From: an uncultured Bordetella sp.
GTDB lineage: Bacteria; Pseudomonadota; Gammaproteobacteria; Burkholderiales; SG8-39
Assembly (NCBI GenBank): GCA_964616875.1
Contig: CAZTSJ010000201.1
Coordinates: 1 to 48,629, forward strand
Direction of reading: 5' to 3'
Length of the DNA stretch: 48,629 bases
Shown here: piece by piece, positions 10,664-37,901 of the stretch
How positions within the stretch are numbered: the stretch's first letter is position 1
How the letters are laid out: every line of letters starts with the position of its first letter
Made by a program: the position numbers and the translations under genes
Notes under the pieces: model-generated
What the model was told of the DNA's origin: nothing
What the model saw: only the letters and a program-made list of their open reading frames with translations
The model's database searches: none

Positions 10664-11475
10664 AGGCGGTCCACTCTGAACTCAAGCGCCTGATCGACGC
10701 GGCCGCGCCCTACTGGGCGGGCGAAGCGGAAGTGTTTCGCAGCTACTGGAACTGGGAGCGGCGCAGCCGCGAGTCCGACCGCCGCTGGCTCGCATTGCAG
10801 TGTTCGAAGGAAATCTGGGGCTCCGGCCTCGCGCCGCTGGACAAGGGTATTTTCCTCGGCCCCGCCGAAGCGCTGGTGGCCGCGTTTCCGCGCATCGACA
10901 TCGAGCTCGACCGCCACGCCGTGCTCGACATCGCCGAAGGCCTGCGCGCCGAGTTCGCGCACTACTGCGCCTTTGCCGACGCCCACGATGCGCTGGCGCT
11001 GCCCGGCGAGCCCAGGCTCAACCCGCACGCGGTGAAGACCGCCTGGAAGGAAGACCTCGAACTCTCGGCGCTGCGCTTTGCGCACAAGAAAGAGAATGCG
11101 AAGCTCGGCGACCGGGCAACCCGTTTCACCGAGGGTGGCTACTGCACGCTGTTTTCCGAAGGCCAGAAACTGAAGCACAGCACGCAAGGGCCGCATGGCC
11201 GGGCCAACGCGCTGATTGCAGAAGCTTGCGCGAGCGTCTACGAGGATGAATTCGGCCACATGCTGAAGGGCATCATCGGCCTGGAGGCCGACGGGCTCGC
11301 CGCGGCGGACTGGTCCACGCTCCAGCGCATGGCGATCGACCAGCTGCGCGCCCGCATCCACATGCGCAACGCGCAGTTCGGCGCTCCGCTTGCAGGCGCC
11401 GCGCTCGAGCGCGCGCTGGCGGGCCGCTGCAATCCGGTCGTGTTCGACTACGGCAAGGCGCGGCTGGCGGCCTAG
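10660..11475 (+). CDS. Hypothetical protein with two E...ExxH motifs (possible ferritin-like diiron-carboxylate fold)
   Basis: 271 aa. RAEFAHY and EDEFGHM, each preceded about 30-40 residues upstream by a Glu (PAEAL; FTEGG). ATGA overlap with the Bug gene. Confidence 0.5.
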   Translation: MKAVHSELKRLIDAAAPYWAGEAEVFRSYWNWERRSRESDRRWLALQCSKEIWGSGLAPLDKGIFLGPAEALVAAFPRIDIELDRHAVLDIAEGLRAEFAHYCAFADAHDALALPGEPRLNPHAVKTAWKEDLELSALRFAHKKENAKLGDRATRFTEGGYCTLFSEGQKLKHSTQGPHGRANALIAEACASVYEDEFGHMLKGIIGLEADGLAAADWSTLQRMAIDQLRARIHMRNAQFGAPLAGAALERALAGRCNPVVFDYGKARLAA

Positions 11476-12194
11476 CTCTGCTGGTCGAGCTGGAGTTGCG
11501 CGCTCAACGTCGCTTCCCTGGGCAGTGCGAGAGACAGCACGCGGCCGCCTTTCGCCTGCGAAAGGCACTGGCAGCGGGGAAAATTCAGGTACTGGCCGAC
11601 CCAGGATCCGTCGGCTGCGGCGCGGATGTCGCTCAGCGAAAACACGTCCAGAGGGCTGTTCAATCCGGTCTGCAATGACTTTCCCAGCGCTTCGCGCGCG
11701 GTCCACAGGACACAGCAGGCCGTCGCATCATCCACGCCGCCCGTCGCGAGCCAGGTCAGTTCCGGGGGCGAGGCCCCCAGTTCGCCGATGATGGTTGCGG
11801 CGGAGACGGCAGCGACGGTTTCCAGGTCGATGCCCATCGGGTACTGCGCCGGAAACGCCAGCGCCACCGCGAGACCGTGCGAGTGGCTCACGCTCACCTG
11901 CGTGGCGCCCGCGTGTGGATGCTGCACGAGCGGCTGGCCGTAGATGCCGGAGCGGATTTCGATCCGCCGCAGGTCGGGCTCCTCGAGCAGCGCGCCGAGC
12001 GCGCGCTTGGCGGCCAGGCGGCCCAGCAGGAAGGACTCCTGTTTCGCGGCGAACTTGAAGCCCGCGAGTTGCGCTTTTTCATTCGCGCTGAGGAATTCTT
12101 CTGCCGCTGTCGCCTCCACCGCGGCAAAGCAGATCCGCTGCTCGCTGCCGCCATGGCGCAGTAGCAAAGACTGCACGCCGGATTTCACGCTCAT
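11472..12194 (-). CDS. 4'-phosphopantetheinyl transferase (Sfp type)
   Basis: ATG at 12194 (ATGA overlap with the oleD stop). Motifs GIDLE and WTAREALGK. About 240 aa. Last gene of the pfa-ole run. Confidence 0.85.
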   Translation of the reverse strand: MSVKSGVQSLLLRHGGSEQRICFAAVEATAAEEFLSANEKAQLAGFKFAAKQESFLLGRLAAKRALGALLEEPDLRRIEIRSGIYGQPLVQHPHAGATQVSVSHSHGLAVALAFPAQYPMGIDLETVAAVSAATIIGELGASPPELTWLATGGVDDATACCVLWTAREALGKSLQTGLNSPLDVFSLSDIRAAADGSWVGQYLNFPRCQCLSQAKGGRVLSLALPREATLSAQLQLDQQS

Positions 12195-13180
12195 GGCTTC
12201 CCCGACGCGGCACGCAGGAGTTCCAGGCCCTCGGCGATGGAGATGCGGGGCGAGTATCCGAGGTCGCGGCGCGCCGCCGAGATGTCGAACCAGTGCGCGG
12301 TGGACAGTTCGTGCACCACGAAGCGCGTCAGGCGCGGCTCGTTCTGGTTGCCGGTAATGCGATGCGCGGTTTCGAGGCCCCAGGCCAGCGCCAGCGCGAG
12401 CCAGACGGGCACGGTGCGCGTGACGGGCGGAGCGCCGGCCGCAGCGAGGAGCCGATTCACCATCTCCCACATCGGCACCGGTTCGCCCTGGGAGATGAAG
12501 TAGACCTTGCCCGCGACCGGCGATCCCGGGGCAAGACGGTCCGCTGCAAGCAGATGCGCTTCGGCGGCGTTGTCCACGTAGACGGTATCGATGAGTCTCG
12601 CGCGCGAGCCGATTTTTCTTAGCTGGCCCGCCTTGGCGCGCGCGGCGAGGCGCGGCAGCAGGTGGTTGTCGCCCGGTCCCCAGACCAGGTGCGGCCGCAG
12701 GCTCACGGTTGCGAGTTGCGCATCGTTGGCTGCGCGCACCAGTTGCTCGGCGATCGCCTTGGTCATGGGGTAGTGGGCTTCGAAATTCCGCGGGTAGGGC
12801 GCGGATTCATCCACGCCCTCCATGTCGCGGCCGTCGAAGACGACGCTGGGCGAGCTCGTATAGACCAGGCGCCGCACGCCGTTCTGCCGGCAGGCGGCAA
12901 TCACGTTCTGCGTGCCGGTAACGTTCGGCAGGTGGTAGTCCTCGTAGTTGCCCCAGATGCCGGGCTTCGCGGCGACGTGAAACACGATGTCGCAGCCCTG
13001 CACTGCCGCGGCCACCGCCGCGGGATCGGCGACGTCGCCGCGCACTTGTTCGACGCCGAGCGCTTGCAATCCATCATGCGCCTGGCGCGAGAAGCTGCGC
13101 ACGCTCGCGCCGCGCTCGAGCAGGCCGCGCACGATCGCCTGACCTATGAATCCCCCGCCGCCGGTGACCAGTGCCTTCAT
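12191..13180 (-). CDS. oleD: OleD: NAD(P)H-dependent 2-alkyl-3-ketoalkanoate reductase (3-beta-HSD / SDR-extended family)
   Basis: ATG at 13180 (ATGA overlap with the oleC stop). TGGGGFIG Rossmann motif and YPMTK (YxxxK). Position after oleABC. Confidence 0.85.
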   Translation of the reverse strand: MKALVTGGGGFIGQAIVRGLLERGASVRSFSRQAHDGLQALGVEQVRGDVADPAAVAAAVQGCDIVFHVAAKPGIWGNYEDYHLPNVTGTQNVIAACRQNGVRRLVYTSSPSVVFDGRDMEGVDESAPYPRNFEAHYPMTKAIAEQLVRAANDAQLATVSLRPHLVWGPGDNHLLPRLAARAKAGQLRKIGSRARLIDTVYVDNAAEAHLLAADRLAPGSPVAGKVYFISQGEPVPMWEMVNRLLAAAGAPPVTRTVPVWLALALAWGLETAHRITGNQNEPRLTRFVVHELSTAHWFDISAARRDLGYSPRISIAEGLELLRAASGKP

Positions 13181-14829
13181 TGCAGCTGCCGGCTCGCCCA
13201 CAGCGCGAGTTTGTCGCGAAAGATCTTGGCGTTGTGGCGCACATCCACCGGAAAGGCGGGGTGGAAGAGGAAAGTCTGGATCTGCCGCGTGAGTTCGTGC
13301 TGCGAGCCCAGTTGGCGCAGCTCGGCGCGAATCGCCTCTTTCGACTCGCTGCGCGCAGCGGCCTCCAGCTCCACGCACAGCACCGGCTCGGTCGCGCCGT
13401 TGCGCTGTACGCCGACGAGCGCGGTGCGCAGGACCTTGGGGCAGGTGTTGAACACGCCTTCGCAGGGGTCCGTGAAGCGGGTGCCCTGCGGCGTGATGAC
13501 GCGGTGCGCCTTGCGGCCGCAGAACCACAGGCGGCCCTGCGCGTCGAAATAACCCACGTCGCCCATGCGATGGTAGAAGCCGCCGCTCTCCGGATCCTGG
13601 ATTTTCGCCAGCGCGGTCGCCTCCGGCAGGTTGAAGTACGTCCGCGTCGCGTGCGCCGCCTGCACCGCGATTTCGCCGATTTCGCCGGTGGGCAGTACCA
13701 GCGCCTCGTCCCAGGTTGCGATCGCCTCGTCCGAAATACGGATGATCTTCGCCTTCAACCCGGCCACCGGGCGGCCGACGCATACGCCCGCGCCAAGGTC
13801 ACTAAGCCTGCGCGTTTCGCCGAGGATCTCGTCGCTGCCGATGGAGGCGACCGGCAGGCACTCGGTCGCGCCGTAGGGCGTGAAAACCTGGGCGCCGCGC
13901 GGCAGCATCGCGGCGAAGCGCTCGAGCACTTTTGCCGACATCGGCGCGCCCGCCGAAATGGTGCGGCGAAGCGTGGGCAGCTTGAGCCCTTTCGCCTCGC
14001 CGTAGCGCCCGACGCGATCGAGCAGCGCGGGCGAGCCGAACATGTTGGTGATGCCGAATTTGTGGATCGCGCTGACGATATGCGCCGGATCCGCGCTCGC
14101 CGGACGCGAGGCGTCCATCTCTGGCACCACCGCCGTCATGCCGAGCGCGGGGCCGAAGAGCGCGAAGAGCGGAAAAGTCGCGAGGTCCATTTCCCCCGGC
14201 TCGATGCCGTACAGGCTGCGGATGTGCGCCACCTGCGCGTTGAAGATTTCGTGCGTGTAGACGGCGCCTTTCGGCGTGCCGGTGCTGCCGCTGGTGAAAA
14301 GTATCGCGGCGGTCTCGTCTGGCGAGGGTTCGATGGCAGTGAGCGGTTGGTCGGGCGGGATCCGCTCGCGCAGTGCGCGCAGGGTGTCGCCGCGCCAGAA
14401 CCATTTCGCGCCCACCGTGACATTGATGCGCACGCTCGCGCGCGCCCAACCAAGCAGCACGCGCGCGGCGTGGGCCTTCGGAATCCCGACGAAGGCTTCG
14501 GGCTGCGCATGGGCCAAGCACCCACCGAGGTTGCGCACGCCGATGCCGGGGTCGATCAGCACCGGAACTGCGCCGGCCTTGAAGAGCGCGAAGGTGAGCG
14601 TAAAAAATTCCAGGCCCGGAGGCACCATCAGCGCGGTTCGCATGCCGCGCCGGATGCCGGCCGCATTGAGGGCGAGCGCGGTGCGGTTGCTGGCGTCTTC
14701 GAGCTCGCGAAAGCTGAGTTGTGCGTAGGCGACCGCGCCGCTCGCATCGCGCCCATGCGCGCAGATGACCGCCGGGCGCGACCCTTGCAGCCGCGCCATG
14801 GGCGCGAGGTGCCCCGCGATGTTAGGCAT
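13177..14829 (-). CDS. oleC: OleC: beta-lactone synthetase (AMP-dependent synthetase/ligase family)
   Basis: 550 aa. FTSGSTGTPKG AMP-binding motif. 8-nt overlap with oleB. Synteny oleA-B-C-D. Confidence 0.9.
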   Translation of the reverse strand: MPNIAGHLAPMARLQGSRPAVICAHGRDASGAVAYAQLSFRELEDASNRTALALNAAGIRRGMRTALMVPPGLEFFTLTFALFKAGAVPVLIDPGIGVRNLGGCLAHAQPEAFVGIPKAHAARVLLGWARASVRINVTVGAKWFWRGDTLRALRERIPPDQPLTAIEPSPDETAAILFTSGSTGTPKGAVYTHEIFNAQVAHIRSLYGIEPGEMDLATFPLFALFGPALGMTAVVPEMDASRPASADPAHIVSAIHKFGITNMFGSPALLDRVGRYGEAKGLKLPTLRRTISAGAPMSAKVLERFAAMLPRGAQVFTPYGATECLPVASIGSDEILGETRRLSDLGAGVCVGRPVAGLKAKIIRISDEAIATWDEALVLPTGEIGEIAVQAAHATRTYFNLPEATALAKIQDPESGGFYHRMGDVGYFDAQGRLWFCGRKAHRVITPQGTRFTDPCEGVFNTCPKVLRTALVGVQRNGATEPVLCVELEAAARSESKEAIRAELRQLGSQHELTRQIQTFLFHPAFPVDVRHNAKIFRDKLALWASRQLQ

Positions 14830-15721
14830 GCGGGTGGCGTGCGAAGAAATCGTCGATCAGGGGCAGGATTTCCTTGCCCGCATCCTCCAGCACGTAATGC
14901 CCCGCGTTCGGGAAGTGGTGCACCTCGGCGCCGGGCAGGAAAGTCTGCCACTCGCGCAGGAAGTGATGGTCGAAGACGAAATCCCGGTCGCCCCAGAGGA
15001 TCAGCGTCGGCGTGTTCCGGAACGAGGGCAGCTTGGCCTGCACTTCGCTCACCAGGTCGTAGCTGGGGTCACCGGGTTGGAGCGGAATATCCTGCACGAA
15101 ACGCAGCAGGCCGGTGCGGTCCTGCGGTGCCCGGTAGGGGAGCAGGTAGGCCTCGCGCACGCGCTGCTCCATCGGCCGGCAGACCGCCCAGCGCGCGAGC
15201 AGGCTGGTAAAGAGCCCCGTATCGCGGATGAGCAGTTCGCCCAGAGGCGTCCTGCGGCACAGCCACAGCGTCGCGGGCAGCTTCTTCGTCTTGGGCAGAT
15301 GAAACGCGGCGCTGTTGAGCAGCACCAGGCGGCCGATTTTTTCGGGATAGCGCGTCGCGTAGGCCATGCCGATCATGCCGCCCCAGTCGTGCATCAGCAG
15401 CGTGATCGGTCCGCGCACGTCGGCCTGCTCGATCAGCGCGGCGAGATCGTCGACGCGGCGGCGCAGCGTGTAGTTGTAGCTCTTCTCATCGGGCTTGTCC
15501 GAGAGTCCGCAGCCGATGTAGTCGGGCGCGATGACGCGGTGCCGGTTGCGCAGGCCGAGCACCAGGTCACGGTAGTAGAACGACCAGGTCGGATTGCCAT
15601 GCAGCATCACCACCGTGTCGCCGCGGCCTTCGTCCAGCACATGCAGCTGGTGACCATTCACGTTCCGGTAGGAACCGGTGAACGGATACAGGTCGTGCTG
15701 GAAACGCACGCCCGTCACCAT
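14822..15721 (-). CDS. oleB: OleB: beta-lactone decarboxylase (alpha/beta-hydrolase, haloalkane-dehalogenase-like)
   Basis: ATG at 15721 (MVTGVRFQ...; 7-nt overlap with the oleA end). HGNPTWSFYYR and the HDWGG nucleophile-Asp motif. Confidence 0.85.
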   Translation of the reverse strand: MVTGVRFQHDLYPFTGSYRNVNGHQLHVLDEGRGDTVVMLHGNPTWSFYYRDLVLGLRNRHRVIAPDYIGCGLSDKPDEKSYNYTLRRRVDDLAALIEQADVRGPITLLMHDWGGMIGMAYATRYPEKIGRLVLLNSAAFHLPKTKKLPATLWLCRRTPLGELLIRDTGLFTSLLARWAVCRPMEQRVREAYLLPYRAPQDRTGLLRFVQDIPLQPGDPSYDLVSEVQAKLPSFRNTPTLILWGDRDFVFDHHFLREWQTFLPGAEVHHFPNAGHYVLEDAGKEILPLIDDFFARHPHA

Positions 15722-16758
15722 TCCAGGCCCATCATGAGACAGGTCAGGCCGCTGCCGATGCCCAGGAAACCGACGCGCTCGCCGGCCTTGAGCGCGCCGC
15801 GTTCGGCGGCGATGGCCGCCGTCACGGGCAGCGCAGCGGTGCCCATGTTGCCGAGAAACCGGTAGGTGGTGTAGTCCTTCTCCTTCGGCAGCTGCAGCGA
15901 CTTGAGGATCGCGTCCTGGTGTCCGCTGCCCACCTGGTGGCAGATGACGCGTTCCACCTGCGCCGGAGTCCAGCCCAGTTCGTCGAGGAATACGCGCCAG
16001 GTCTGCTGGCCGAGTTGCACGCCGTATTTCAGCACCGACACCGAATCGGTGGCCATGAACTGCGACTGCTGCAGCCCGGCGGCGGGCGCGAGGCCCCAGC
16101 GGCACAGCGCATGATGCTCCGGCGCGACCTGCGATACGGCGCCGAGCAGGCGATGACCCGGCGGGCCTGAAAACGATCCGTCGGTCAGCAGCATCGCCAC
16201 CGCGCCGGATCCGCCCGTAAAGGTCGCAATCGCCTCGGCGAACTGGTCCATCTCCACGCCCTGCAGCAGGCGCTCGAGCATGATTTCGTTTATTTCCCGC
16301 GCCGATTCGCAGGACACGACGAAGCCGGCGCGGATCTGCCCCAGTTCGATGCGGTTGGCGATCTCGAGCATGCCGTTCAACACGCCCAGGCAGGCGTTGC
16401 TCAGGTCGTAGACCGACGCCGCGCCCTTCACGCCGAGCGCGTCAGCCACCGCGCAGGCGGTCGCCGGCTCGAAGTTTTCACGGCAGACTCCGGCGTAGAT
16501 CACCACCCCGAGGTCGGCGGCCCGGACCGAAGTCTTCGCCATCGCCTTGCGCGCGGCGGCGGTGGCGCCGGCCGAGAGGCGCGCGTCGGGCTGCCACCAG
16601 CGGCGCTCCGCGATGCCGGTCCAGGCTTCGAGCTGGCCGGGCTGGATGCTCAGGCGCTTGTACACCGGCGCGAGCCGCACCTCCAGTTCTGCCGAAGTGA
16701 CGACCTGAGGTCCGAGCTCGTAGCCCAGGGCGGTGAGGAAAACGCGTCTGTATTTCAA
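15715..16758 (-). CDS. oleA: OleA: head-to-head (non-decarboxylative Claisen) acyl-CoA condensing thiolase, FabH-like
   Basis: 347 aa. SNACLG active-site Cys context and a FabH-like fold pattern. TTG start, with an in-frame TGA two codons upstream. Directly followed by oleBCD. Confidence 0.85.
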   Translation of the reverse strand: MKYRRVFLTALGYELGPQVVTSAELEVRLAPVYKRLSIQPGQLEAWTGIAERRWWQPDARLSAGATAAARKAMAKTSVRAADLGVVIYAGVCRENFEPATACAVADALGVKGAASVYDLSNACLGVLNGMLEIANRIELGQIRAGFVVSCESAREINEIMLERLLQGVEMDQFAEAIATFTGGSGAVAMLLTDGSFSGPPGHRLLGAVSQVAPEHHALCRWGLAPAAGLQQSQFMATDSVSVLKYGVQLGQQTWRVFLDELGWTPAQVERVICHQVGSGHQDAILKSLQLPKEKDYTTYRFLGNMGTAALPVTAAIAAERGALKAGERVGFLGIGSGLTCLMMGLEW

Positions 16759-16761
16759 TGG

Positions 16762-16902
16762 TCAGGCCTTCATCCCGCCTGGCGGTTGCCGTGCTTGAAA
16801 ATCTTGGCTGTCTTCATCGACCGCTCCGGACGAATAGATACCGATCAGATCGCCCGCCTGCGCGTGGGCGACAACCGCCAGGAGGGTGAGCAGGAGCGTC
16901 AT
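16762..16902 (-). CDS. Candidate 46-codon micro-ORF with a signal-peptide-like N-terminus (MTLLLTLLAVVAHAQA/GD...)
   Basis: Own translation; the ORF is below the track size cut-off. Its ATG overlaps the lipoprotein stop (ATGA), and its TGA lies 3 nt before the oleA TTG. It fills the whole gap between the two genes. Confidence 0.25.
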   Translation of the reverse strand: MTLLLTLLAVVAHAQAGDLIGIYSSGAVDEDSQDFQARQPPGGMKA

Positions 16903-18053
16903 GGTTTAGAGGTCCGGCACAGATCGGCCGCTAGCGTGCGCTTGGCTTGATGGACGACGACCCGGCAACCGTCGTTGCCGCTTACCAAAGCGGGCGCCTC
17001 TTCGCCAGCATAGCGCATCAGCAGTACCCATTTCCCGTCCCGCAGTGCGTAGAGCCCTCTCGCCTGGGCGCCGACAAGCTTCCCCCAGACGCTGATCAAC
17101 ATCCGTCCGCCAACCAGGAACAGCTTCATGTGGGTGTAGCAGGAGATGCCGCAGGAGAATCCATGGAGCTGGTCCAAAAATCCGTATTCGACCACCCAGG
17201 GACCTGGGGGTACGGAGAGTTCCCGGAAGTTGTCGTCTTCGAGGCTGAAGAGATAAGCGGTCAGGGGCCAGGGGCCTTTGAGCTTCTCAAAATCGCTTGC
17301 CTGCTGGTAGAGCAGATATTTCTTCGCAGCAGCATCGAAAGCGATGCCGTACTTGATGCGGAACCGGGAATTCGCCACCGGGTAGAAACTTCCCTTGCCG
17401 CCCCGCTCCAGATACAGGAGGCGGGAGGTCTCATTCACCCCATTGGGTTTGTCCAGGAGGAAAAGGCTGCCGTGGGTATCGCGCAGGAGGTTGGTGAAAG
17501 TGTAGTGGTAGTCGGAAGCGGTCTGCCAGGTCTCCCCGAGGTATTCCTTTTGGAGCTTCTCGTGTTTCTGGCGCTTCTCTTTGGCTTTGTAATTGAAGTG
17601 GCGCCGGCAGTTGAATTCCCCGCTCCAGGCGGATTCGTCCTCGGGGAGTTGTCCGAGCGACAGCGCCTTCGAGTCCCAGTAGGCGCCGTGTTCGTAGTTC
17701 GTGCTGCCGTTCCGCTCCTTGAGCCGGGCGAAATGGACCACGCCGTTGTCGAGGTCCACGCAATTGATCGAGATGCGGCCGGACTTGACGCGCGGCCCGG
17801 CGCTCTTTTTGCGTAGGTCGTAAGTGAAGAAGGAGTCCTGGTCGTTGAACAGCACGACGTCATCGCCGATCCAGTGGAGGGGGACCCACGAGGGGTCCAG
17901 CGTCACCGCGCCCGGCAGGAGGGCTTCAGGGTCCAGGCTTCTCGAGCAGCCGCAAGCGCCGACGAGGAAGAAGGCCAGCAACAGTCGGCGCAAGTTTTTT
18001 ACCAATGGCGGCTCGCGATGCGACATAAGCACCATTGTGCGCCGTGCGGTCAC
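16899..18053 (-). CDS. Hypothetical lipoprotein (no recognised family)
   Basis: Lipobox FFLVGAC|GCS after a basic n-region (KNLRRLLLAF). GTG at 18053 overlaps the pfaC stop (GTGA); ATGs at 18035 and 18026 are alternative starts. GC content is visibly lower than the flanks. Confidence 0.65.
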   Translation of the reverse strand: MTARRTMVLMSHREPPLVKNLRRLLLAFFLVGACGCSRSLDPEALLPGAVTLDPSWVPLHWIGDDVVLFNDQDSFFTYDLRKKSAGPRVKSGRISINCVDLDNGVVHFARLKERNGSTNYEHGAYWDSKALSLGQLPEDESAWSGEFNCRRHFNYKAKEKRQKHEKLQKEYLGETWQTASDYHYTFTNLLRDTHGSLFLLDKPNGVNETSRLLYLERGGKGSFYPVANSRFRIKYGIAFDAAAKKYLLYQQASDFEKLKGPWPLTAYLFSLEDDNFRELSVPPGPWVVEYGFLDQLHGFSCGISCYTHMKLFLVGGRMLISVWGKLVGAQARGLYALRDGKWVLLMRYAGEEAPALVSGNDGCRVVVHQAKRTLAADLCRTSKP

Positions 18054-21000
18054 GCGTGGATAGATTGTCCTATCCGTTGACGCAGCGTGAAGTCTTTCAT
18101 GCTGTAGATGACGCGGCCATCCACTGAGAGGTAACCGTCGGCGCGCAGCAGGCGCCGCGCTTCATCCACTTCGGTCACTACTGCTTCGACGGTGACCTCG
18201 CGGTCTGTTGGGATAACCTGCCCGCGATACACCCATTCGTGCCGCTCATTGGTCGCGACCGCCTCGTAGTGACCGGCTCCCCAGCGCTCGACGGCGATAA
18301 ACCTGAGCAGCTGCAGGAAGGACTCCAGCCCAAGCGAGCCCGGCACCACCGGGTCCTGGTGGAAGTGCGCCTTGAAGAACCATTCCTCCGGCAGCACGCG
18401 CCGCGTGGCGCGAATGAACCCCAATCCTTTCGGTCCGCCGTCCGGAATCCAGGCATCGATGCGATCGAGCAGGCGCAGCCGGCCGGCGGGAAATGGCGAG
18501 ACCTGCGGGAAATCCAGCGCGCGGCTGCGCGCGAGCTCCTGCGGCGACGGAAGATAGAGCTTCGCGTCCTTCAGGCCTTCCTGCTTCAACAGCGCGACCT
18601 TCGGGAAAAAGCCGAAGTAGGTGTCGCCCTTGTACAGGGATACGCGGCCGGCGAGCACCTCGTAGTCGAAGAACTGGATGATCATGCCCGCGGAACTGGA
18701 GGCGCGCGTGAGTTTCGCGCGCACCGTGAGCGTGCCGCTCTGCGGAACCACGCGCGCCAGCTGCGTCGCGGTGCCGCCCAGATTGCGGAACGACACGTCC
18801 ACCTCGCTCGTCAGCGCCGAGCCCATGTAGGCCGCGAGCCAGCCGCAGGGCTGCAGGGCGATTTCGAGCAGCACCGCGAAGGGCATCTCATCTTGGTGGT
18901 TGGCGGCGAAATACCAGGCGTCCGCGGGCACGTCGTATTGGGTTTCGCACTCGCCGCCGGGAAGAATTTTCCAGGCTTCGGCACGGATCGCGGTGACGCG
19001 GTCGAGGAACTGGTAGGGTGGCCCGGGCAGGCGCGCGATGACGCGACCGGAATCGAAAATCCGGTAGGGCTCGCCAAAAGCTTCGGAGGGCTTGCCCACG
19101 GCGAATGCAAGAATGCGATCGGTGTCGAAGAGCGCCTTTTTCCTGCCTGGGACCGCCCACAGCGCCCTGAAGCTCTCCTGCGTCGCGCCCGCGTAGCGCA
19201 GGCTCATGTTCGTGATCTCGACGATTGGCTTGCCGTCGGCAAGCATCAGCGCGTCGGCGATGACGTAGGGCTCGGGCCGGTAGCCGATTTCCTTGATCGA
19301 GATTTCATAGGTCACGAGCCGCGTCGTGTCGAGCACCTGGCCGCGGCATTTGAGCTGGCTGGCGATGCCCGGCACCGGCTCGAGCACCACCTGGCCCTCT
19401 TCGGCCACCCAGCCCTGGCGCAGCAGGAACACGCGCAAGGTGTGCAGGCAGCACTCGAACATCAGCGTGCCCGGCATGACGCGATCGTCGAAGAAGTGGC
19501 AGGTGAGGAACCAGTCCTCCGGGTGAATATCCGCTTCGCCAGTGATGCTGCCGATGCCGAAGCGCCCCCCAATCGGATCAAGGCGGGCGATGCGATGCAC
19601 CAGCTTCATCCTGCCGCTGGGCAGCGTGACCGGCTTCGCCACCGGCAGCCCGGCAAAGGCCGCGCCAAAGCATCCGGCCAGGTCCCCCGCGCGCAAAGCC
19701 TCGAGCTGCGCCTCCGAATAGCTCTCGACACCGCCGGCGGTGAAATGCTCCCAGTCGGCCGCGCGCTTTCCCGGCGCCGGTTGCATGTCCAGCGCGGTGC
19801 GCACGATGCCTTTGCCGGTCGCCAGTGCTGCAGCGGAGAAGAAGCCCGCGCAGCCCTCGGTCATGGTGAGCAGCGGCGCGCCGTTCACGGTCGCCTCGAA
19901 ACCGAAGCGGAACAGCCAGGTGTCGCTCTGGCGGAAGAAACCGTCGATGCGGATGTCGTAGCGGATCACCTCGCCCGGGCCGGGCAGGCCGCGGTGGAAG
20001 CAGACCTTGGCGTCGAGCAGGCGGTACATGGCGCGGCCGCGCGTCTGAAAATCGATGCCGAGAAAACCCGACAGGAAGAGATCCGCCTGTCCGGCTTCGA
20101 CCGCGATGCAGGTCGGAATGCGCCCGCAGTCGAGATACCAGGCGTCCGGGCGCACGTCGTGCTCGGTCAGCACGCGGCCCTGCGTCATCGACAGCGGTTC
20201 GCCCTCGACGTCGAGAATCCGGTCCACCAGCATGAGCGGCTCATCGGGCAGGCGCACGCGCGTGGGGAAGGAATCGGCCGCGGCGAATTCCGGGCCCAGC
20301 ACGCGGCCGACCGAACCGCGCGCAAATTCGAGACAAGCCGCACGATCAAGTGAACGGATCGGCGCGCTGATTTCAGCCACGGCGACGCTGGCAGAAGCTG
20401 ATTGCGCCGCGATGGCTTGCGCCAATGTTTGCGAGAGGTTTTGCGAAAAGCGCAGATAGGCTTCATGCGCTTCGACGGTCGCTCGTTCTGTTTCGACCAT
20501 CGAGCGGTAAAGGGCAACGGTAAAATCATCTTCCGGCTTCACCCGCGCAGGAATCGCAGGAGCCGTGAACGGCGCTCCGGTGATGGACACGGTGACGCAT
20601 TTGCCGGCGGGCTTTGCCACAGCTGCAGGCGTATCTCGGCGGCGGAGCATTTCTGCGTTCAGCGGCACGCCCGCGGCGTGCAGTTCGGCCAGCGTCCTGA
20701 GGAAATGCCCGACCGGGTCCGGTCCGGCAACCGCGAGCGACCGGGCGAGATGCGGCCGGCCATCGAGGATCCTGTCGATCATGCGGCTGCAGGAATTGCC
20801 GGGACCCATTTCGATGAAGGTGCGCACGCCGGCGTCGTAGGCAGCGCGGATCACGCGCGGGAAATCGATCGAGTCCATCGCCTGCGCCTCGATCGCGTCG
20901 GCGGCGGTTTCGCGCTCCGGCACGTAGGCGCGGCCCCAGGCGCAACTGTAGAACTCCACGCCCGCCGGCGGCAGCGTGTCGAAGCGGTGGAGCTCGCGGT

Positions 21001-30100: not shown

Positions 30101-30287
30101 CATAGGTGCGGTCCGGGGATTTCGGGTCGGCGTCGAAATACTCCGCCGCGTTCCAGTGCGTCGCGGGCACCGGCGTGATCGCGTCGACGCCGTTCTTGAT
30201 GTTGGCCCAATAGGCCTGCAGGCCGTCGGCCTTGGGAAAAAGGCAGCTGATGCCGACGATCGCCAGCGGTTGTGAACGGGTGCTCAT
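24180..30287 (-). CDS. pfaA: PfaA-like PUFA/secondary-lipid synthase subunit: KS-AT-ACP-ACP-KR-DH(PKS type)
   Basis: ATG at 30287 (ATGA overlap with the pfaD stop); 2035 aa. Approximate domain map:
- KS, nt 28878..30272 (DAACASS, Cys215 codon 29643..29645; EAHGTGT; SQIGHTK).
- AT, nt 27648..28556 (GQGSQ; GHSYGE).
- ACP1, Ser codon 27021..27023.
- ACP2, Ser codon 26748..26750 (both in LGIDSIKRVE).
- KR, nt 25218..25862 (VVSGGARGVTG).
- DH, nt 24198..25055 (HVFNGRAVLP = HxxxGxxxxP). Confidence 0.9.
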   Translation of the reverse strand: MSTRSQPLAIVGISCLFPKADGLQAYWANIKNGVDAITPVPATHWNAAEYFDADPKSPDRTYAQSGGFLAPVNFNPMEFGIAPKDIEATDTAQLLSLVAAQRALADAGYATGNAGGGNAGRKFDRERTSVILGVTGALELVIPLGARLGHPIWRRALKEAGVDGAVAEDVVQRISDSYVGWQENSFPGLLGNVAAGRIANRLDLGGTNCVVDAACASSLAAIHLASLELAAGRSDMVITGGVDTFNDIFMYMCFSKTPALSPTGDAKPFDRDCDGTVLGEGLGVVVLKRLADAERDGDRIYAVLKGIGSSSDGRSSGIYAPRAGGQKLALQRAYEDAGTAPETIGLIEAHGTGTKVGDATELSSLIEVFRAAQPNGTWCALGSVKSQIGHTKAAAGVAGLIKAAMALHEKVLPPTIKVKQPIEEAAPGRSPFYLNTGKRPWLPAAGHPRRAGVSALGFGGTNFHCVLEEHSAGKTDAAWDGDIEILALCSDRIDELRAALGAQRTDSSWLDFRRAARASRAQFRRDAELRLLMVVTKESDRAGLKDAALKMLEKNPGRTSWTAPAGIAFGSGKQRGKLGALFPGQGSQYTGMLRDLACQFPGMLQALAEADEAFAREPAGNSSQRLSDFIYPHPVFTDAARQQQAEALKATDVAQPALGAVSLGAFSVLNYFGVAAQAACGHSYGELLALCGAGRIEATALHQLSNLRGRLMASGQGSERGAMLAVQADEKAVQDFLREEAGELVVANRNSPTQYVLSGPLEQIKRALGKLTQRAVRSRMLQVSAAFHSPLVADARAPFAKALEAVAFDEGRMPVYANATGREYPKTAEQAREVLASQIVRPVNFMEQVQAMHADEVRTFIEVGPGHVLSDLVQSILPGGEVETIALDASKGGRSGIFDLALVLARLAALGHEVALEKWENAPPEADASALKPALTVPLSGANYRAPAAPRPPAVLSSTPVENRIPAKAPAALSATQDGILALQRLQEQTAQLHKQFLEGQESARRSIQALLEQRSGAPVAQALAAPMAVVAVPQIVREAPAMDRSRSERPVLDLYTSAVLEVVCDKTGYPVEMLNLGMGMDSDLGIDSIKRVEIMAALRARLPEAPEIKPEHLGSLQTLEQVVAFLANGQPVVPAKAGIQKDQSLISETLLAVVSEKTGYPVEMLNLGMGMDSDLGIDSIKRVEIMAALRGKLPGSPEIKPEHLGSLRTLQQVADFLLGQAAEPASVPASAAAPAAPAVPAVILKPEAASGVLRQLIRAVELPGVEERDAISLPAGALVWLSDDGSELCLRIEERLRALRLNVQRGDPRRGFPGTVPASLAALVIVAPAGGSDDAFIRQAFTLIQRTGPVLRQAGAAILVTVSRLDGAFGFGALSEKSDPVSGGLAGLLKTARHEWPQVHCKALDLNPASIVAGAAAEQVVAEMFRAGPVEVGLSAGKRLALEVAVAAHDGQQQGLRPPLSEGDVVVVSGGARGVTGDAALALARAWRPTLILLGRSELGESEPAWLQDLQTEAGIKKAFAARQGSGGSPKAVEAKYREVIAGREIRAQLGRLEAAGARAFYHALDVRDGAAVARVLAEVRRRHGAIRGLIHGAGVLADRRIEDKTAEQFDLVYGTKVAGLRNLLAALAQDELKAIALFSSYSGRVGRVGQADYAAANEVLNKLAQLESRRRPACRVVSINWGPWNGGMATPGVRKLFEQEGIGLIEPAAGAEFLVRELCSTAKNAVEILALAPPVAIKVEPVQELALAREDSVAFVREVSVATLPFLESHVFNGRAVLPAALMVEWLAQAALHGNPGMAFHGLDNFKVLKGIVLDARQTIMVSLRTGAATPRDRLHAVPVRMTSQLNGREILHAAADVLLTTENLPAAPEPVLVDIPGGGFADAYSIGVLFHGAALHGIERVEGLAERGIAAILKAASAPIKWMTHPLRGTWIADPLALDSAFQMMILWSAAQRGAPSLPSAFARYRQFVSVFPKGGCRAVIAVALGISTIAVATIQFFDRQGNLLASAEGCEFVVDAALRDAFRLNRLGLEK
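26631..27131 (-). repeat. Tandem duplication encoding the two ACP domains (period 273 nt = 91 codons)
   Basis: 26725..26768 and 26998..27041 are identical over 44 nt (GCCATGATTTCGACGCGCTTGATGGAGTCGATGCCGAGGTCCGA). The flanks are highly similar. Confidence 0.85.
26866..26891 (-). repeat. REP-like hairpin element, copy 3, inside the pfaA coding sequence (inter-ACP linker)
   Basis: Minus strand GTCGTTCCCGCGAAAGCGGGAATCCA matches copy 1 (3086..3111) at 25 of 26 positions. It is translated in-frame as VVPAKAGIQ between ACP1 and ACP2. Confidence 0.65.
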
Positions 30288-31720
30288 GAATTCATTACAG
30301 CTCGCAAATCGTCCGGCTCCAAAGGTTGCGCTCCGGCTGGCGCCTGCATGCCCTGGGCGCGGAGATACTGCTGGCCCAGCTGCTGCGCTGCGCCGACCAT
30401 CAGGTTCTGGGCTACCACCACCACGCGCCGGTGCTCCGGTTTCTCGAGGAAGCTGCCGCGCGCCCATTCATTGAACGCCCCCATCGCCGGACCGCACCAG
30501 ACCTGGTAATCCATCTGGCGCGACGCTTCGCCGGCATTCGCCCAGCGCGAACTCAGGCCGAGATAACTGCGGAAAACGAGCGCCATCCGGTGCTTCGGAT
30601 CGCGCTCGGCGCGCTCGACCTGACTCGCATCGCGCCGGAGGAAAAACTGCCGCGTCTCGCGCCAGGCTTCCTCGACCGTGGCGCGCAGAAGTTGCTTTTC
30701 AATGAATGCCTTATCCGCTTCCGGGAGCGATTCCAGGCCTGCGTTCACCCGGTACAGATCATACAGCTTGGCGGCGCGCATTGGGAACATCGTGCCCCGC
30801 TTGAGCACCTGTACCCGCACCCCCATTTCGAACATGTCCGCCGCCGGCGCCATGGCGACATCGGCCTGCTCGGCCTGCGCGAGCATCTGGCGTACCGCAT
30901 CCGATGATCCCGACTCGACGCAGGCCTGGTTCACGGTGCCGGTGAGAACGTAGGCGGCGCCCATCGCAAAGGCCGCGGCCAGTCCGGAGGGCGTCGACAG
31001 GCCGCCCGCCGCCCCCACGCGCAAGCCCTCGGCGTAGCCGAATTGCTGCTGCAGCCGATCGCGCAGCGCGATGAGCGTCGGCAGCAAGGTCACCAGCGGG
31101 CGGTTGTCGGTGTGGCCGCCGGAATCGGCTTCCGCGGTCACGTCCTGCGCCATCGGGATCGCGCTCGCGAGCGCCGCCTGCGCGGCGGTTATCTCTCCCG
31201 TCTTCACGAGCTGATCGAGCAATTCCTGCGGCGGCGGTGAGAAGAACTGCGTCGCGACTTCGACCCGCGAAACCTTGGCGATGATGCGATTGGGCGTGAC
31301 GATGCGTCCCGCGGCATCGCGCTTGATGCCGTTCACCCGGTAGCGCACGACAGGCAGCGTGAGCCGCAGATAGGCGGAGGCTTCCACCAGCCGGATGCCG
31401 CGCCGCAAATACAGATCCACCAGCTGCGCTTCGAGATCCGGCTCGTTGGGGCTGTGAATGAGGTTGAAGCCATAGGGCGCGCCCGGAATCGCGCCGGCCA
31501 GCTCGTCGATCGCCGCTTCGATGCGCTCCAGACCCAGGCCCGCGGCGCCGAAAAAACTCAGCATTCCCGCGCGCGCCATTTCCGCCACGAGCCGGGTAGA
31601 GCCGATGCCGTTCGCCATCGCGCCCGCGACGTACGCGTAGCGCACGCAATGGTCGCGGCGGAAGGATGCGTCGCCCAGGTGCTCCGGCTTCAACGCCGGA
31701 ATGCCGGCGGCTGCGTTCAT
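30284..31720 (-). CDS. pfaD: PfaD-type enoyl reductase (nitronate monooxygenase / 2-nitropropane dioxygenase-like, FMN)
   Basis: ATG at 31720 (ATGA overlap with the CoA-transferase stop). Pattern YAYVAGAMANGIGS..LV.EMARAGMLSFFGAAGL and the rest of the protein are typical of the PfaD family. Confidence 0.9.
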   Translation of the reverse strand: MNAAAGIPALKPEHLGDASFRRDHCVRYAYVAGAMANGIGSTRLVAEMARAGMLSFFGAAGLGLERIEAAIDELAGAIPGAPYGFNLIHSPNEPDLEAQLVDLYLRRGIRLVEASAYLRLTLPVVRYRVNGIKRDAAGRIVTPNRIIAKVSRVEVATQFFSPPPQELLDQLVKTGEITAAQAALASAIPMAQDVTAEADSGGHTDNRPLVTLLPTLIALRDRLQQQFGYAEGLRVGAAGGLSTPSGLAAAFAMGAAYVLTGTVNQACVESGSSDAVRQMLAQAEQADVAMAPAADMFEMGVRVQVLKRGTMFPMRAAKLYDLYRVNAGLESLPEADKAFIEKQLLRATVEEAWRETRQFFLRRDASQVERAERDPKHRMALVFRSYLGLSSRWANAGEASRQMDYQVWCGPAMGAFNEWARGSFLEKPEHRRVVVVAQNLMVGAAQQLGQQYLRAQGMQAPAGAQPLEPDDLRAVMNS

Positions 31721-32943
31721 GCTGCGGCCTGCGCGGCGCCGCTCGCGAGCAGCTGTTCGATCGCGCTCTCGGCGAGCCCGGCCTCGCGCAGCACTTCGCG
31801 CGTATGCTCGCCCAGGCGCGGCGCGTGGCGGCGGTATTCGGGCGCCGACTCGGACCATTCCGAGGGCACGGCCATGCTGCGGATGCGGCCTTCGCTCGGG
31901 TGCTCGACTTCGCGGAAGTAGCCGATCGCCGCGAGGTGCGGATCCGCGACGATGTCCTCGAGGCTGTTCATGCGCTGCACCGGGATGTCGGCGGCCTCGA
32001 GCGCGGCGATCCACTCCGCGGTGCTGCGCGTGCGCATCGCTTCGGCGACGAGGCGGTTGGACTCATCGAAATTCCGGCTGCGCGCGGTCGGCGTGGCATA
32101 GCGCGGATCGGCGAGCAGCTCGGGCCGGCCGATCAACGCGAAGAACGCGCGCCATTGCTTGTCGTTGTAGACCAGCACGCAGACGTAGCCGTCCTTGGTC
32201 GCGTAAGGAAGGCGTTCTTTGGCCAGCATGCGAGCGTAGCCGGTGGCGCCGCGCTTTTCACCGGCTCCCGGCACGTAGGTGTAGCCGCCCATGTGTTCGC
32301 CCATGACGGTCTGCAGCAGGCTTTCGAACATCGGCACATCGATGCGCTGACCGAGGCCGCCGCCAGAGCGATCGCTTTTTTCCCTCCTGTACAGCGCCGC
32401 GCACACCGCATTGACGATGTGCAGGCCGACGGTGCGATCGGCCATGGTCGCGGGCACATAGCGCGGCGATTCCGCGCCGGCTTCCTTCAGCAGCCAGGGC
32501 AGGCCGGCCGCGCCCTGGATCAGGTCGTCGTACGCCGCCTTCGCGGCGTAGGGCCCGCGCTGCGAATAGCCGAAGGCGCCGACGTATATGATTCGCGGGT
32601 TCACCGCGCGCACTGCGTCATAGGAGAGCTTCAGGCGCGCCATCGCCTGCGGCCGGATGTTGTAGACCAGCACGTCCGCGCCCCTGGCGATGGCGAGGCA
32701 GGCCTCGCGGCCCGCGTCCTGCTTCAGGTCGAGCACCACCGAGCGCTTGTTGCGGTTGGCGTTCATGAAGATGTGCCCCATGCCCTTGGAGCGCAGCGGC
32801 GCGTTGTGGCGCATCACGTCGCCCTCGGGCGGCTCGACCTTGATCACCTCGGCGCCAAAGTCGCCGAGGATCTGGGTCGCGTACGGACCCATCACCACCG
32901 TGGTGAGATCGAGGACGCGTACGCCGTCGAGCGGGCCGGCCAC
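31717..32943 (-). CDS. CaiB/BaiF family (class III) CoA-transferase
   Basis: 408 aa. GPLDGVRVLDLT.V..GPYATQILGDFGAEVIKVE N-terminus. GTG start 5 nt after the upstream Bug stop. Confidence 0.9.
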   Translation of the reverse strand: MAGPLDGVRVLDLTTVVMGPYATQILGDFGAEVIKVEPPEGDVMRHNAPLRSKGMGHIFMNANRNKRSVVLDLKQDAGREACLAIARGADVLVYNIRPQAMARLKLSYDAVRAVNPRIIYVGAFGYSQRGPYAAKAAYDDLIQGAAGLPWLLKEAGAESPRYVPATMADRTVGLHIVNAVCAALYRREKSDRSGGGLGQRIDVPMFESLLQTVMGEHMGGYTYVPGAGEKRGATGYARMLAKERLPYATKDGYVCVLVYNDKQWRAFFALIGRPELLADPRYATPTARSRNFDESNRLVAEAMRTRSTAEWIAALEAADIPVQRMNSLEDIVADPHLAAIGYFREVEHPSEGRIRSMAVPSEWSESAPEYRRHAPRLGEHTREVLREAGLAESAIEQLLASGAAQAAA

Positions 32944-32948
32944 GTCAG

Positions 32949-33893: not shown

Positions 33894-33901
33894 CAGATCT
33901 C

Positions 33902-35629: not shown

Positions 35630-35630
35630 C

Positions 35631-37284: not shown

Positions 37285-37321
37285 TCTGCAGGGGCGGTTT
37301 TATCCAGCTCTAGCCCTACTC

Positions 37322-37834: not shown

Positions 37835-37901
37835 GCGCAGGTCCCCGTGATTTGTGCTGGTAAAATGCTGATTTTAGCGTGAAACTCGCGGTGTCAGGGA
37901 T

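Follow-up and report, generated by a model that had tools for sequence, protein, structure and literature searches.

A Geobacter-type pfa-ole gene cluster, probably for polyene synthesis, in an uncultured betaproteobacterium

We report a minus-strand gene block that, judged by its genes, their domains, the catalytic residues and the conserved gene order, is very probably a Geobacter-type secondary-lipid cluster, pfaD-pfaA-pfaBC-oleA-oleB-oleC-oleD-pfaE, making a C31:9-type polyene. The block occupies positions 11472-32943 of the window (the whole 48,629-nucleotide stretch of DNA that was analysed) and comprises genes for a CoA-transferase, pfaD, pfaA, a fused pfaBC, a lipoprotein, oleA, oleB, oleC, oleD and a phosphopantetheinyl transferase (PPTase), densely packed with overlaps or tiny gaps throughout (Table 1). 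We term it "Type I-like", a label suggested by architecture and synteny only. The block belongs to an uncultured member of the Betaproteobacteria that is closely related to a MAG with the label Nitrosomonadales/Burkholderiales, in agreement with the betaproteobacterial context recognized in an initial annotation. Features specific to this genome, namely the lipoprotein gene, a vapBC scar and a CoA-transferase/Bug pair, are secondary and lie at the edges of the cluster or at the pfaC-oleA joint.

Table 1. Features of the pfa-ole region and its upstream edge, in order of transcription, with the junction to the next gene downstream
Feature	Positions	Strand	Description	Junction
Bug/TctC-family periplasmic binding protein	32949..33893	-	Pfam TctC 202 bits	5-nt gap
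Family III CoA-transferase	31717..32943	-	Pfam CoA_transf_3 372 bits	ATGA
pfaD	30284..31720	-	Enoyl reductase subunit of Pfa-type synthase	ATGA
pfaA	24180..30287	-	KS-AT-ACP-ACP-KR-DH	11-nt overlap; TTG start at 24190
pfaC (pfaBC)	18050..24190	-	KS-CLF-AT-DH(FabA)-DH(FabA), pfaB-type acyltransferase fused in	
Lipoprotein gene	16899..18053	-	384 aa; rare inserted gene, not a conserved cluster part	
vapBC deletion scar ("micro-ORF", 46 codons)	16762..16902	-	DNA alignment with relatives	
oleA	15715..16758	-	Thiolase, head-to-head Claisen condensation; TTG start	7-nt overlap
oleB	14822..15721	-	Haloalkane-dehalogenase-like alpha/beta hydrolase (beta-lactone decarboxylase)	8-nt overlap
oleC	13177..14829	-	AMP-dependent beta-lactone synthetase	ATGA
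oleD	12191..13180	-	NAD(P)H-dependent 2-alkyl-3-oxoalkanoate reductase	ATGA
pfaE-type 4'-phosphopantetheinyl transferase	11472..12194	-	Pfam ACPS + 4PPT_N	

Domain and family searches (Pfam and NCBIfam) located the predicted domains in each of the ten protein-coding frames and upheld every gene assignment of the initial annotation, including its central observation of a PUFA-synthase-type module (PfaD, PfaA, PfaC) followed by oleABCD and a PPTase in one same-strand block. PfaD matched TIGR02814 (pfaD_fam) at 646.5 bits against a cut-off of 449, with further Pfam matches to NMO and FabD_helical_ins. PfaA scored 1496 bits with TIGR02813 (omega_3_PfaA; cut-off 1010) and contains the Pfam domains ketoacyl-synt, Acyl_transf_1, two copies of PP-binding, KR and PKS_DH_N/PS-DH, with the motifs DAACASS (KS, at 212), GHSYG (AT, at 681) and LGIDS (ACP, at 1086 and 1177). 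The presence of just two ACP domains, as opposed to four to six in EPA synthases, counts against the polyene assignment. In PfaC, two ketoacyl-synt domains, Acyl_transf_1 (863-1130) and three stretches of FabA were found, along with a single KS cysteine motif (DAACASS at 191), the AT motif GYSLG at 949 and the FabA histidine motif at 1942. The TTG at 24190 is the sole pfaC start that retains the KS N-terminus, as the next ATG falls within the conserved IAIVGM motif. Residues 852-1142 of PfaC match TIGR02816 (pfaB_fam), and this fused AT domain accounts for the missing separate pfaB. Residues 1-2037 are collinear with homologues from Desulfuromonadales, Verrucomicrobiota, Elusimicrobia and Phycisphaerae.

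The question of whether the condensing enzyme is OleA or a housekeeping FabH was answered in favor of OleA. It scored 474 bits with NF006720 (cut-off 285) as opposed to 87 bits with the FabH model TIGR00747, and its top PDB matches were structures of Xanthomonas campestris OleA (3ROW etc.; 188 bits), while any FabH reached at most 77 bits. All four catalytic residues are present: E97-P98, C123, H274 and N304 align to E117, C143, H285 and N315 of X. campestris OleA. Close homologues carry the JGI name acyl-CoA:acyl-CoA alkyltransferase. OleB matched Pfam Abhydrolase_1, with haloalkane dehalogenases as its nearest models and structures, and contains the nucleophile Asp112 (in HDWGG) and His275; in related loci its gene always comes after oleA. 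OleC scored 678 and 671 bits with the olefin beta-lactone synthetase models NF045786 and NF045785, and 752 bits with PRK09274 (cut-off 478), compared to 169 bits for the next unrelated family. OleD, a Pfam 3Beta_HSD protein with the motifs GGGGFIG and Y137xxxK141, scored 442 bits with NF042422 and 414 bits with NF042423, the next family reaching 170 bits. The Ole-specific scores thus exceed those of any other named family fourfold for OleC and 2.5-fold for OleD. Both proteins fall short of the strict NCBIfam equivalog cut-offs (900 and 850 for OleC, 580 for OleD), a point against the polyene assignment.

In Geobacter bemidjiensis, a producer of hentriacontanonaene (C31:9), the genes pfaD, A, B, C, oleA, B, C, D and pfaE follow one another in tandem (PMC4882568). 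The cluster of strain Bem (Type I of Shulse & Allen 2011) matches ours in gene order and orientation from pfaD through the PPTase gene, and in both pfaB and pfaC are fused and a thioesterase is absent (PMC4882568, PMC3098273). Our cluster differs in that its host is an uncultured betaproteobacterium, its product is predicted, pfaC is separated from oleA by a lipoprotein gene of foreign origin and the vapBC scar, and pfaD overlaps at its start with a CoA-transferase gene. Type I clusters are characterized by the pfaBC fusion and have been proposed to feed olefin synthesis; pfa-like clusters and ole genes are described as "often linked" (PMC3098273). The Desulfuromonadales loci of our survey share the common synteny, a collinear PfaC and an OleA of 59-63% identity. 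Shewanella oneidensis and Photobacterium profundum (Type A pfaABCDE plus oleABCD) possess the same enzyme set with the same proposed chemistry, in which C31:9 is built from 16:4n-3 and OleA draws Pfa ACP-bound chains; the catalytic cysteine is at position 123 here and in S. pealeana OleA (PMC6463001). Their pfa and ole operons are separate, without linkage in Shewanella but side by side in P. profundum, where pfaT lies between them, and they have a separate pfaB, pfaD in last position, a PfaA with 4-6 ACPs and the accessory thioesterase PfaT, whereas our cluster has a PfaA with two ACPs, pfaB fused to pfaC and pfaD in first position, and lacks PfaT. The X. campestris oleABCD system shares the OleA fold, the equivalents of the four catalytic residues and the OleB, OleC and OleD families, but has no Pfa synthase and uses FAS II acyl-CoA substrates; OleA identity is 36%. 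Gemperlein et al. in 2014 reportedly described myxobacterial pfa1-pfa2-pfa3 PUFA clusters with an ER-first order and an AT domain in the third synthase gene, both of which recall our cluster; pfa3 is said to end with an AGPAT domain, the products to be PUFAs and no ole genes to follow.

Of 78 species-level genomes that could be evaluated, 55 have the end of pfaC at most 300 nt upstream of oleA, and 64 have it at a distance of 2 kb or less. This adjacency spans Verrucomicrobiota, Planctomycetota, Desulfuromonadales, Elusimicrobia and 14 of 15 MAGs labelled Betaproteobacteria. Almost all of 80 metagenome loci retain the pfaD-pfaA order, oleBCD lie downstream of oleA in nearly all surveyed loci, and the PPTase is the sole gene family conserved downstream of oleD (27/48 loci with enough downstream sequence). 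As the adjacency is conserved in many phyla, we argue for a functional link between pfa and ole. It is highly improbable that the Ole enzymes instead use FAS II acyl-CoAs to form mono- or di-unsaturated C27-C31 olefins while the Pfa-like synthase makes an unrelated secondary lipid. The closest solved structure, X. campestris OleA, does belong to an enzyme that uses FAS II-derived acyl-CoAs (PMC7064751); however, OleA homologues are specialized, each for chains from FAS II or for chains from Pfa (PMC6463001), and Geobacter with the identical gene order makes C31:9. The initial annotation had regarded the fused arrangement as new unless a survey were to find it common and characterized. It has been published for G. 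bemidjiensis (PMC4882568), and it is the majority arrangement in our survey, which is the result that the annotation had named as refuting its claim of novelty; that claim fails.

Each junction was read directly from the sequence, and those from CoA-transferase/pfaD to pfaA/pfaC and from oleA/oleB to oleD/PPTase agreed with the initial annotation, which took the overlaps as hard-wiring eleven translationally coupled frames. Dense packing extends upstream past 32943, however, where equally tight junctions join unrelated genes (gshB/EIIA, ATGA; EIIA/HPr, GTGA; HPr/ptsP, 1-nt gap; ptsP/Bug, 8-nt gap), so the overlaps are a trait of a compact, high-GC genome and no specific evidence of hard-wiring. 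Ten of the frames are real, but the micro-ORF is a deletion scar, the lipoprotein gene a foreign insert and the CoA-transferase not conserved. We therefore find it very unlikely that all eleven form one dedicated, novel unit, in which the CoA-transferase would provide OleA with new or recycled acyl-CoA and replace a thioesterase/ligase pair. Such a role could draw on the real ATGA overlap with pfaD and on the lack of a thioesterase gene in the cluster, as annotated; OleA, though, uses Pfa products without an acyl-CoA synthetase or thioesterase (PMC6463001). Of eight close relatives with enough sequence, four have a CoA-transferase upstream of pfaD (L081, L084, L089, L090), a point in its favor, yet the spacing is 0.5-1 kb in three of these, and the gene is missing upstream of pfaD in the other four and in all more distant loci. 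The CoA-transferase, which reached no NCBIfam equivalog cut-off, is probably a lineage-specific upstream neighbour outside the pathway. The Bug gene is also a neighbour and no part of the pfa-ole system; L081 lacks it, and ptsP there directly abuts the CoA-transferase gene.

The lipoprotein gene is a rare foreign insert, a secondary event at the pfaC-oleA joint. Its product had no Pfam or NCBIfam match and no tblastn match across 160 related pfa/ole loci, and homologues occur in only 5 clusters among 5.8 billion proteins, encoded after a dCache_1/AAA_22 gene without nearby pfa or ole genes. The gene has a GC content of 0.603, compared to 0.65-0.69 in adjoining genes. The protein carries a conserved lipobox and a GFSCGISCYT motif, and its fold is probably all-beta, as suggested by a poor AF2 model (pLDDT 55) whose Foldseek matches were generic beta-propellers only. 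The annotated GTGA overlap with pfaC is doubtful, since the lipoprotein start likely lies further downstream: the database gene call begins at ATG 18035 (378 aa), 18045-17996 is homologous to non-coding DNA of L003 and L006, and the conserved signal peptide begins near TTG 17993. Translation probably begins at 18035 or ~17993.

The supposed micro-ORF, with a GC3 of just 0.68, is the scar of a vapBC toxin-antitoxin pair still intact in close relatives, and is a secondary event peculiar to this genome. When the DNA was aligned to that of L003, L005 and L006, 16775-16841 proved to be the vapB upstream region and first ~15 antitoxin codons, fused to the final vapC codons with the ~620-nt remainder of the pair deleted; blastn gave 87-94% identity to these three loci. 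The joint of the relatives holds an intact MazE/AbrB-type antitoxin and PIN toxin, the toxin ending 3 nt upstream of oleA; the annotated 3-nt gap before oleA exists, but is inherited from this vapC/oleA junction. A lower-GC insert of 1.3 kb exactly at the joint might suggest that pfa and ole are adjacent yet uncoupled, with the insert interrupting expression, ole silent or driven by a vapB promoter, and Pfa serving mainly membrane-lipid PUFA. Promoters of toxin-antitoxin pairs are normally located upstream of the antitoxin gene, and the scar, flanked by an 18-nt inverted repeat, retains DNA upstream of vapB. Even so, we consider uncoupling very unlikely: every ole frame is intact with a normal GC3 (0.85-0.87), neither a terminator-like site nor a sigma-70-like promoter was found on the minus strand at 16700-18100, the insert runs in the direction of the operon, a vapBC pair at this very site is tolerated in relatives, and the cluster encodes no acyltransferase that would load PUFA into phospholipids. 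The insert could nonetheless be polar on ole expression, which weighs against the Geobacter-type reading.

For the Geobacter-type cluster, homology and published work together suggest co-transcription and the following route. The PPTase would prime the two ACP domains of PfaA, and PfaA, PfaBC and PfaD would iteratively assemble a polyunsaturated acyl chain. OleA would condense two such chains head to head, probably drawn directly from the Pfa ACPs; OleD would reduce the beta-keto acid, OleC would close the beta-lactone and OleB would decarboxylate it to a cis-olefin. The direct hand-off predicted by the initial annotation is not new, having been proposed from experiments in 2019, with OleA taking acyl chains straight from the Pfa ACPs and PfaT being an accessory enzyme only (PMC6463001). 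The presence of oleB favors an olefin over a beta-lactone end product (PMC7064751). We predict a very-long-chain polyene akin to hentriacontanonaene (C31:9) as the product, its chain length and double-bond number not being legible from sequence. The betaproteobacterial relatives compared here are all MAGs, and Betaproteobacteria as a class find no mention in the 2011 survey of Shulse & Allen. The cluster is a betaproteobacterial example of an already known system.

The stretch carries ten solid minus-strand genes within 11472-32943, which were delimited by ORF listing and start-codon inspection and assigned with Pfam and NCBIfam models. Homology and synteny lend good support to the core reading of the initial annotation, namely a polyolefin operon of pfa and ole genes with a PPTase at its end, and the annotation's observations were essentially right as to the minus-strand genes, their families and most of the junctions.

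Minus-strand genes of the pfa-ole region, with coordinates and supporting matches
Gene	Coordinates	Strand	Evidence
Family III CoA-transferase	31717-32943	-	CoA_transf_3 372 bits; no equivalog cut-off reached
PfaD	30284-31720	-	TIGR02814 646 bits (cut-off 449)
PfaA	24180-30287	-	TIGR02813 1496 bits (cut-off 1010); KS-AT-ACP-ACP-KR-DH
PfaC-like with internal AT	18050-24190	-	KS-CLF-AT-FabA-FabA; pfaB_fam match at 852-1142
384-aa protein	16899-18053	-	no family match
OleA	15715-16758	-	NF006720 474 bits
OleB	14822-15721	-	dehalogenase-like alpha/beta hydrolase
OleC	13177-14829	-	beta-lactone synthetase models NF045786 678 bits (cut-off 900) and NF045785 671 bits (cut-off 850), under strict cut-offs; PRK09274 752 bits (cut-off 478)
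OleD	12191-13180	-	NF042422 442 bits (cut-off 580); next family 170 bits
PPTase	11472-12194	-	ACPS

The pfa genes encode the parts of a Pfa-type synthase: a PfaD-family ER, a PfaA with KS, AT, tandem ACP and KR domains, and a PfaC with KS-CLF and two FabA-type DH domains. Motifs are intact both in PfaA (KS Cys, AT GHSYG and two LGIDS ACP motifs) and in PfaC, in which one KS Cys is followed by a Cys-less KS-like domain (the CLF), the AT carries GYSLG and the FabA His motifs are present. The initial remark that a separate pfaB is lacking holds, and Pfam, NCBIfam and motif evidence place an AT domain inside PfaC, forming a pfaBC fusion. PfaA contains just two tandem ACP domains (residues ~1059-1230) with near-identical 45-residue cores, in contrast to the 4-6 ACPs of EPA/DHA synthases in the literature.

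The possibility that the OleA-like protein is a housekeeping FabH was weighed against structural and profile matches. In a PDB search, the twelve best matches were X. campestris OleA entries at ~183-188 bits, whereas the best FabH reached 77 bits; likewise, the OleA profile NF006720 outscored the FabH model TIGR00747 (474 versus 87 bits), and the protein does not group with FabH. Residues E97-P98, C123, H274 and N304 align with 3ROW chain residues 103-104, 129, 271 and 301, whose numbering runs uniformly 14 below that of the published X. campestris E117, C143, H285 and N315. The alignment thus recovers equivalents of the catalytic Cys143, His285 and Asn315 together with the Glu117-Pro pair, a hallmark of OleA (PMC7064751), at an overall identity of 36% to the X. 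campestris enzyme. Judged from its sequence, the protein is a true OleA, for which head-to-head Claisen condensation is predicted.

OleB is an Abhydrolase_1 protein with a dehalogenase-like fold, its best structure matches being dehalogenases. It has an Asp nucleophile within HDWGG (D112) and a C-terminal His (H275), and its gene lies next to oleA and oleC, a synteny kept in related loci. The roles of these OleB Asp and His residues are reportedly covered by Christenson et al. 2017. OleC misses both equivalog cut-offs but falls within the broader PRK09274 family, with the next unrelated family at 169 bits, and is therefore OleC-like and outside the two calibrated clades. OleD, also under its cut-off, has the SDR Rossmann motif GGGGFIG and Y137xxxK141. 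Searching the PDB by sequence returned no Ole orthologues of OleB, OleC or OleD, the matches being dehalogenases, adenylating enzymes and SDRs.

To see how common the fused arrangement is, one genome per GTDB species was scanned with OleA, giving 236 relatives, the best 80 of which were kept and compared by tblastn with all proteins of the window. Among these best 80 of 236, PfaC is encoded on the same strand as oleA and ends no more than 300 nt before it in 55 of the 78 evaluable loci, and no more than 2 kb before it in 64 of the 78 with enough upstream sequence; oleB, oleC and oleD come after oleA in nearly all of the 80. Sixteen of the same best 80 are labelled Betaproteobacteria, Burkholderiales or Nitrosomonadales (PfaC upstream in 14 of 15 evaluable), and other labels include Verrucomicrobiota (30), Planctomycetota, Phycisphaerae, Desulfuromonadales, Desulfobacterales, Elusimicrobia and Lentisphaerales. 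PfaC is collinear across residues 1-2037, AT included, in representatives of the surveyed groups. In a PfaD scan of metagenome contigs, almost all of 80 loci had the order pfaD-pfaA. Past oleD, the PPTase is the only conserved gene family (27 of 48 loci), and no conserved thioesterase was found there in those 48. The survey shows that the fused pfa-ole arrangement is the common one and that the split Shewanella arrangement is not.

Within Schlesneria, seven loci (L056, L057, L068, L071, L074, L076 and L079) carry planctomycete OleA homologues of ~387 aa and 57-58% identity; pfaC is missing upstream, as are oleB, oleC and oleD within 10 kb, and these homologues may represent a paralogue or a split arrangement. 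Four other Schlesneria loci (L055, L059, L062 and L067) have pfaC 0.5-1.8 kb upstream of the OleA gene.

The window cluster has the layout of a Type I, Geobacter-type cluster, with a pfaBC fusion, pfaD at the 5' end, and oleABCD and a PPTase directly downstream. Type I clusters were defined by the pfaBC fusion (Shulse & Allen 2011; PMC3098273), the same pfa-ole order has been described in G. bemidjiensis (PMC4882568) and recurs in the Desulfuromonadales loci of our survey, and the link between pfa and ole has been shown to be mediated by OleA (Allemann et al. 2019; PMC6463001). Earlier work therefore already covers the fused operon, the product to be expected from it and the direct hand-off, and the novelty initially claimed for the arrangement is refuted by this literature and by the adjacency counts alike. 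Betaproteobacteria go unmentioned in the 2011 survey (PMC3098273), so the host class is a modest new element. We infer that the cluster is co-transcribed and that its product would be a C31:9-type polyene.

The tight packing of the genes was proposed initially as evidence of one coupled unit. Reading the sequence confirmed the ATGA overlaps at CoA-transferase/pfaD, pfaD/pfaA, oleC/oleD and oleD/PPTase, as well as the overlaps of 11 nt at pfaA/pfaC, 7 nt at oleA/oleB and 8 nt at oleB/oleC. The TTG of pfaC is the sole start that keeps the KS N-terminus, and the TTG start of oleA is common to its closest relatives (L003, L005 and L006). Packing goes on upstream into unrelated genes: a gshB, EIIA(Man-type), HPr and ptsP string at 33902-37299 on the minus strand runs directly into the TctC-family Bug gene, the CoA-transferase gene and pfaD, with spacings of 5 nt (Bug/CoA-transferase), 8 nt (ptsP/Bug) and 1 nt (HPr/ptsP), a GTGA at EIIA/HPr and an ATGA at gshB/EIIA. 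This makes ~15 consecutive same-strand genes with almost no intergenic space. Since junctions among the unrelated upstream genes are equally tight, the overlaps are a general genome trait and do not mark the pathway boundary. Across 10500-20000 and 29500-37000, intrinsic terminators and sigma-70 promoters were no more frequent than in shuffled sequence, and their counts are uninformative for operon structure; neither kind of element was found on the coding strand between pfaC and oleA.

Conservation was used to judge the 5' edge. The CoA-transferase occurs upstream of pfaD solely in four close relatives (L081, L084, L089 and L090), with a gap of 0.5-1 kb in three of them, and is missing there in four further close relatives as well as in every more distant locus; it was rejected as a pathway member on these grounds. 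In L081, ptsP abuts the CoA-transferase gene with no Bug between. Pairs of Bug/TctC and family III CoA-transferase genes are common carboxylate-utilization neighbors in Betaproteobacteria, and both genes are treated here as neighbors and not as pathway parts. As a weaker variant of the co-option reading given below, which we think very unlikely, the ATGA-coupled CoA-transferase would join chain hand-off in clusters that have no thioesterase.

The pfaC-oleA joint departs from that of most relatives, in which the spacing is 5-60 nt versus 1.29 kb here. The three closest relatives, with OleA identities of 86-91%, hold an intact vapB-vapC pair in this gap (L003:2074-3750, L005:2868-3564 and L006:1-2064, compared with window 16759-18049). 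These vapB (MazE/AbrB-type) and vapC (PIN) genes are in operon orientation and end 3 nt before the oleA TTG; the undisrupted genes of L005 and L006 match the MazE_antitoxin and PIN families, and L003 and L006 have an additional IS91-family transposase on the opposite strand. DNA alignment and blastn identified window 16775-16841 as the vapB upstream region and first ~15 codons (MKTAKIFKHGNRQAG-stop), fused to the terminal codons of vapC. With only these codons left and intact antitoxin and PIN toxin genes lacking, the window has a vapBC remnant and is not a member of the family. Shortly before oleA, the vapB remnant is flanked by an 18-nt inverted repeat (16774-16791 and 16869-16886; 89% complementarity, 77 nt between the arms), whose upstream arm is not conserved in relatives.

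The 46-codon micro-ORF initially counted as a frame of the operon crosses this scar in another frame, with a GC3 of 0.68. A role as a small coupling peptide was rejected in view of the scar alignment with the vapBC of relatives, and we regard the frame as a relic. Of the eleven coupled frames first proposed, the CoA-transferase gene, the 384-aa lipoprotein gene and the micro-ORF are not conserved pathway members, and the last is no gene.

The lipoprotein gene is best read as a foreign insert. Homologues are absent from all 160 related loci by tblastn (80 from the OleA scan and 80 metagenome loci from the PfaD scan), the family has only 5-6 clusters among 5.8 billion proteins, and the gene's GC is 0.603 versus 0.65-0.69 in its neighbors. 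Its homologues in other metagenomes (L161-L167) share 4 nt with the end of the preceding gene, which encodes a ~695-aa dCache_1/AAA_22 protein, and have neither pfa nor ole genes nearby. No direct repeats were found around the insert. The family has a conserved lipobox and the Cys-rich motifs GFSCGISCYT and, C-terminally, DGCR...DLC. An AF2 model built from 6 sequences is all-beta at low confidence (pLDDT 55), and Foldseek against the PDB matched it to generic beta-propellers only (TM 0.2-0.33). The protein is tentatively an all-beta lipoprotein, and we draw no functional conclusion past that. Its frame is present, but the GTGA reported with pfaC depends on a start at 18053; which of 18053, 18035 and ~17993 is the true start is uncertain, since blastn shows 18045-17996 to be homologous to non-coding DNA in L003 and L006.

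In this lineage the pfaC-oleA joint seems to have taken up insertions repeatedly. It is conceivable, though we think it very unlikely, that, as a repeated target of selfish or foreign DNA (vapBC, an IS91-family transposase and, in the window, the orphan lipoprotein gene), it has had its inserts or the retained putative vapB promoter/operator co-opted, uncoupling or regulating ole relative to pfa. The oleA start is only a few nucleotides from the inserts, and such co-option, if true, would adjust how output is divided between polyunsaturated fatty acids and hydrocarbon.

The betaproteobacterial context initially suggested was borne out: two TctC-family genes and the gshB-EIIA(Man)-HPr-ptsI string fit such a chromosome, and the closest OleA homologues (among the best 80 of 236) and PfaD homologues are from MAGs labelled Betaproteobacteria, Burkholderiales or Nitrosomonadales. 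The genes that follow the PPTase gene recur in L003 with amino-acid identities of 88-92%, and L081 shares ptsP, the CoA-transferase gene and pfaD. Among the best 80 of 236, OleA identity to the window is 81-91% in Betaproteobacteria, 65-79% in Verrucomicrobiota and 57-64% in Planctomycetota, Desulfuromonadales and Elusimicrobia, a gradient that fits the horizontal spread already proposed in the literature. Several MAGs with a pfa-ole cluster and an OleA 70-84% identical to that of the window (L008, L011, L021, L022, L030, L032, L033, L042 and L050) are named Bordetella parapertussis, Akkermansia muciniphila, Klebsiella pneumoniae or Klebsiella sp.; these names look like mislabels from automated submission.

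Elsewhere in the window, an Rfam SAM-II (SAM_alpha) riboswitch at 7168-7245 (minus strand; 43.9 bits against a gathering score of 36) immediately precedes an alpha/beta-hydrolase gene (6017-7150, minus strand), which is probably a metX-type homoserine acyltransferase. A tRNA-Arg(CCG) at 37902-37978 (plus strand), ~4 kb upstream of the cluster, adjoins a cytochrome c gene at 37322-37873 (minus strand).

Because the pathway, gene order and ACP-to-OleA hand-off are already published, the cluster raises no new question. The vapBC scar and the foreign insert provide a small, clear example of relics within what, in raw sequence, passed for an operon made up of overlapping ORFs. Uncultured Betaproteobacteria of soil and fresh water are now added to the hosts of the known pfa-ole polyolefin cluster, with 16 species-level genomes so labelled, an extension that is of use in reading C31:9-type hydrocarbons in environmental lipid profiles and in picking compact single-operon sources for heterologous polyene production.
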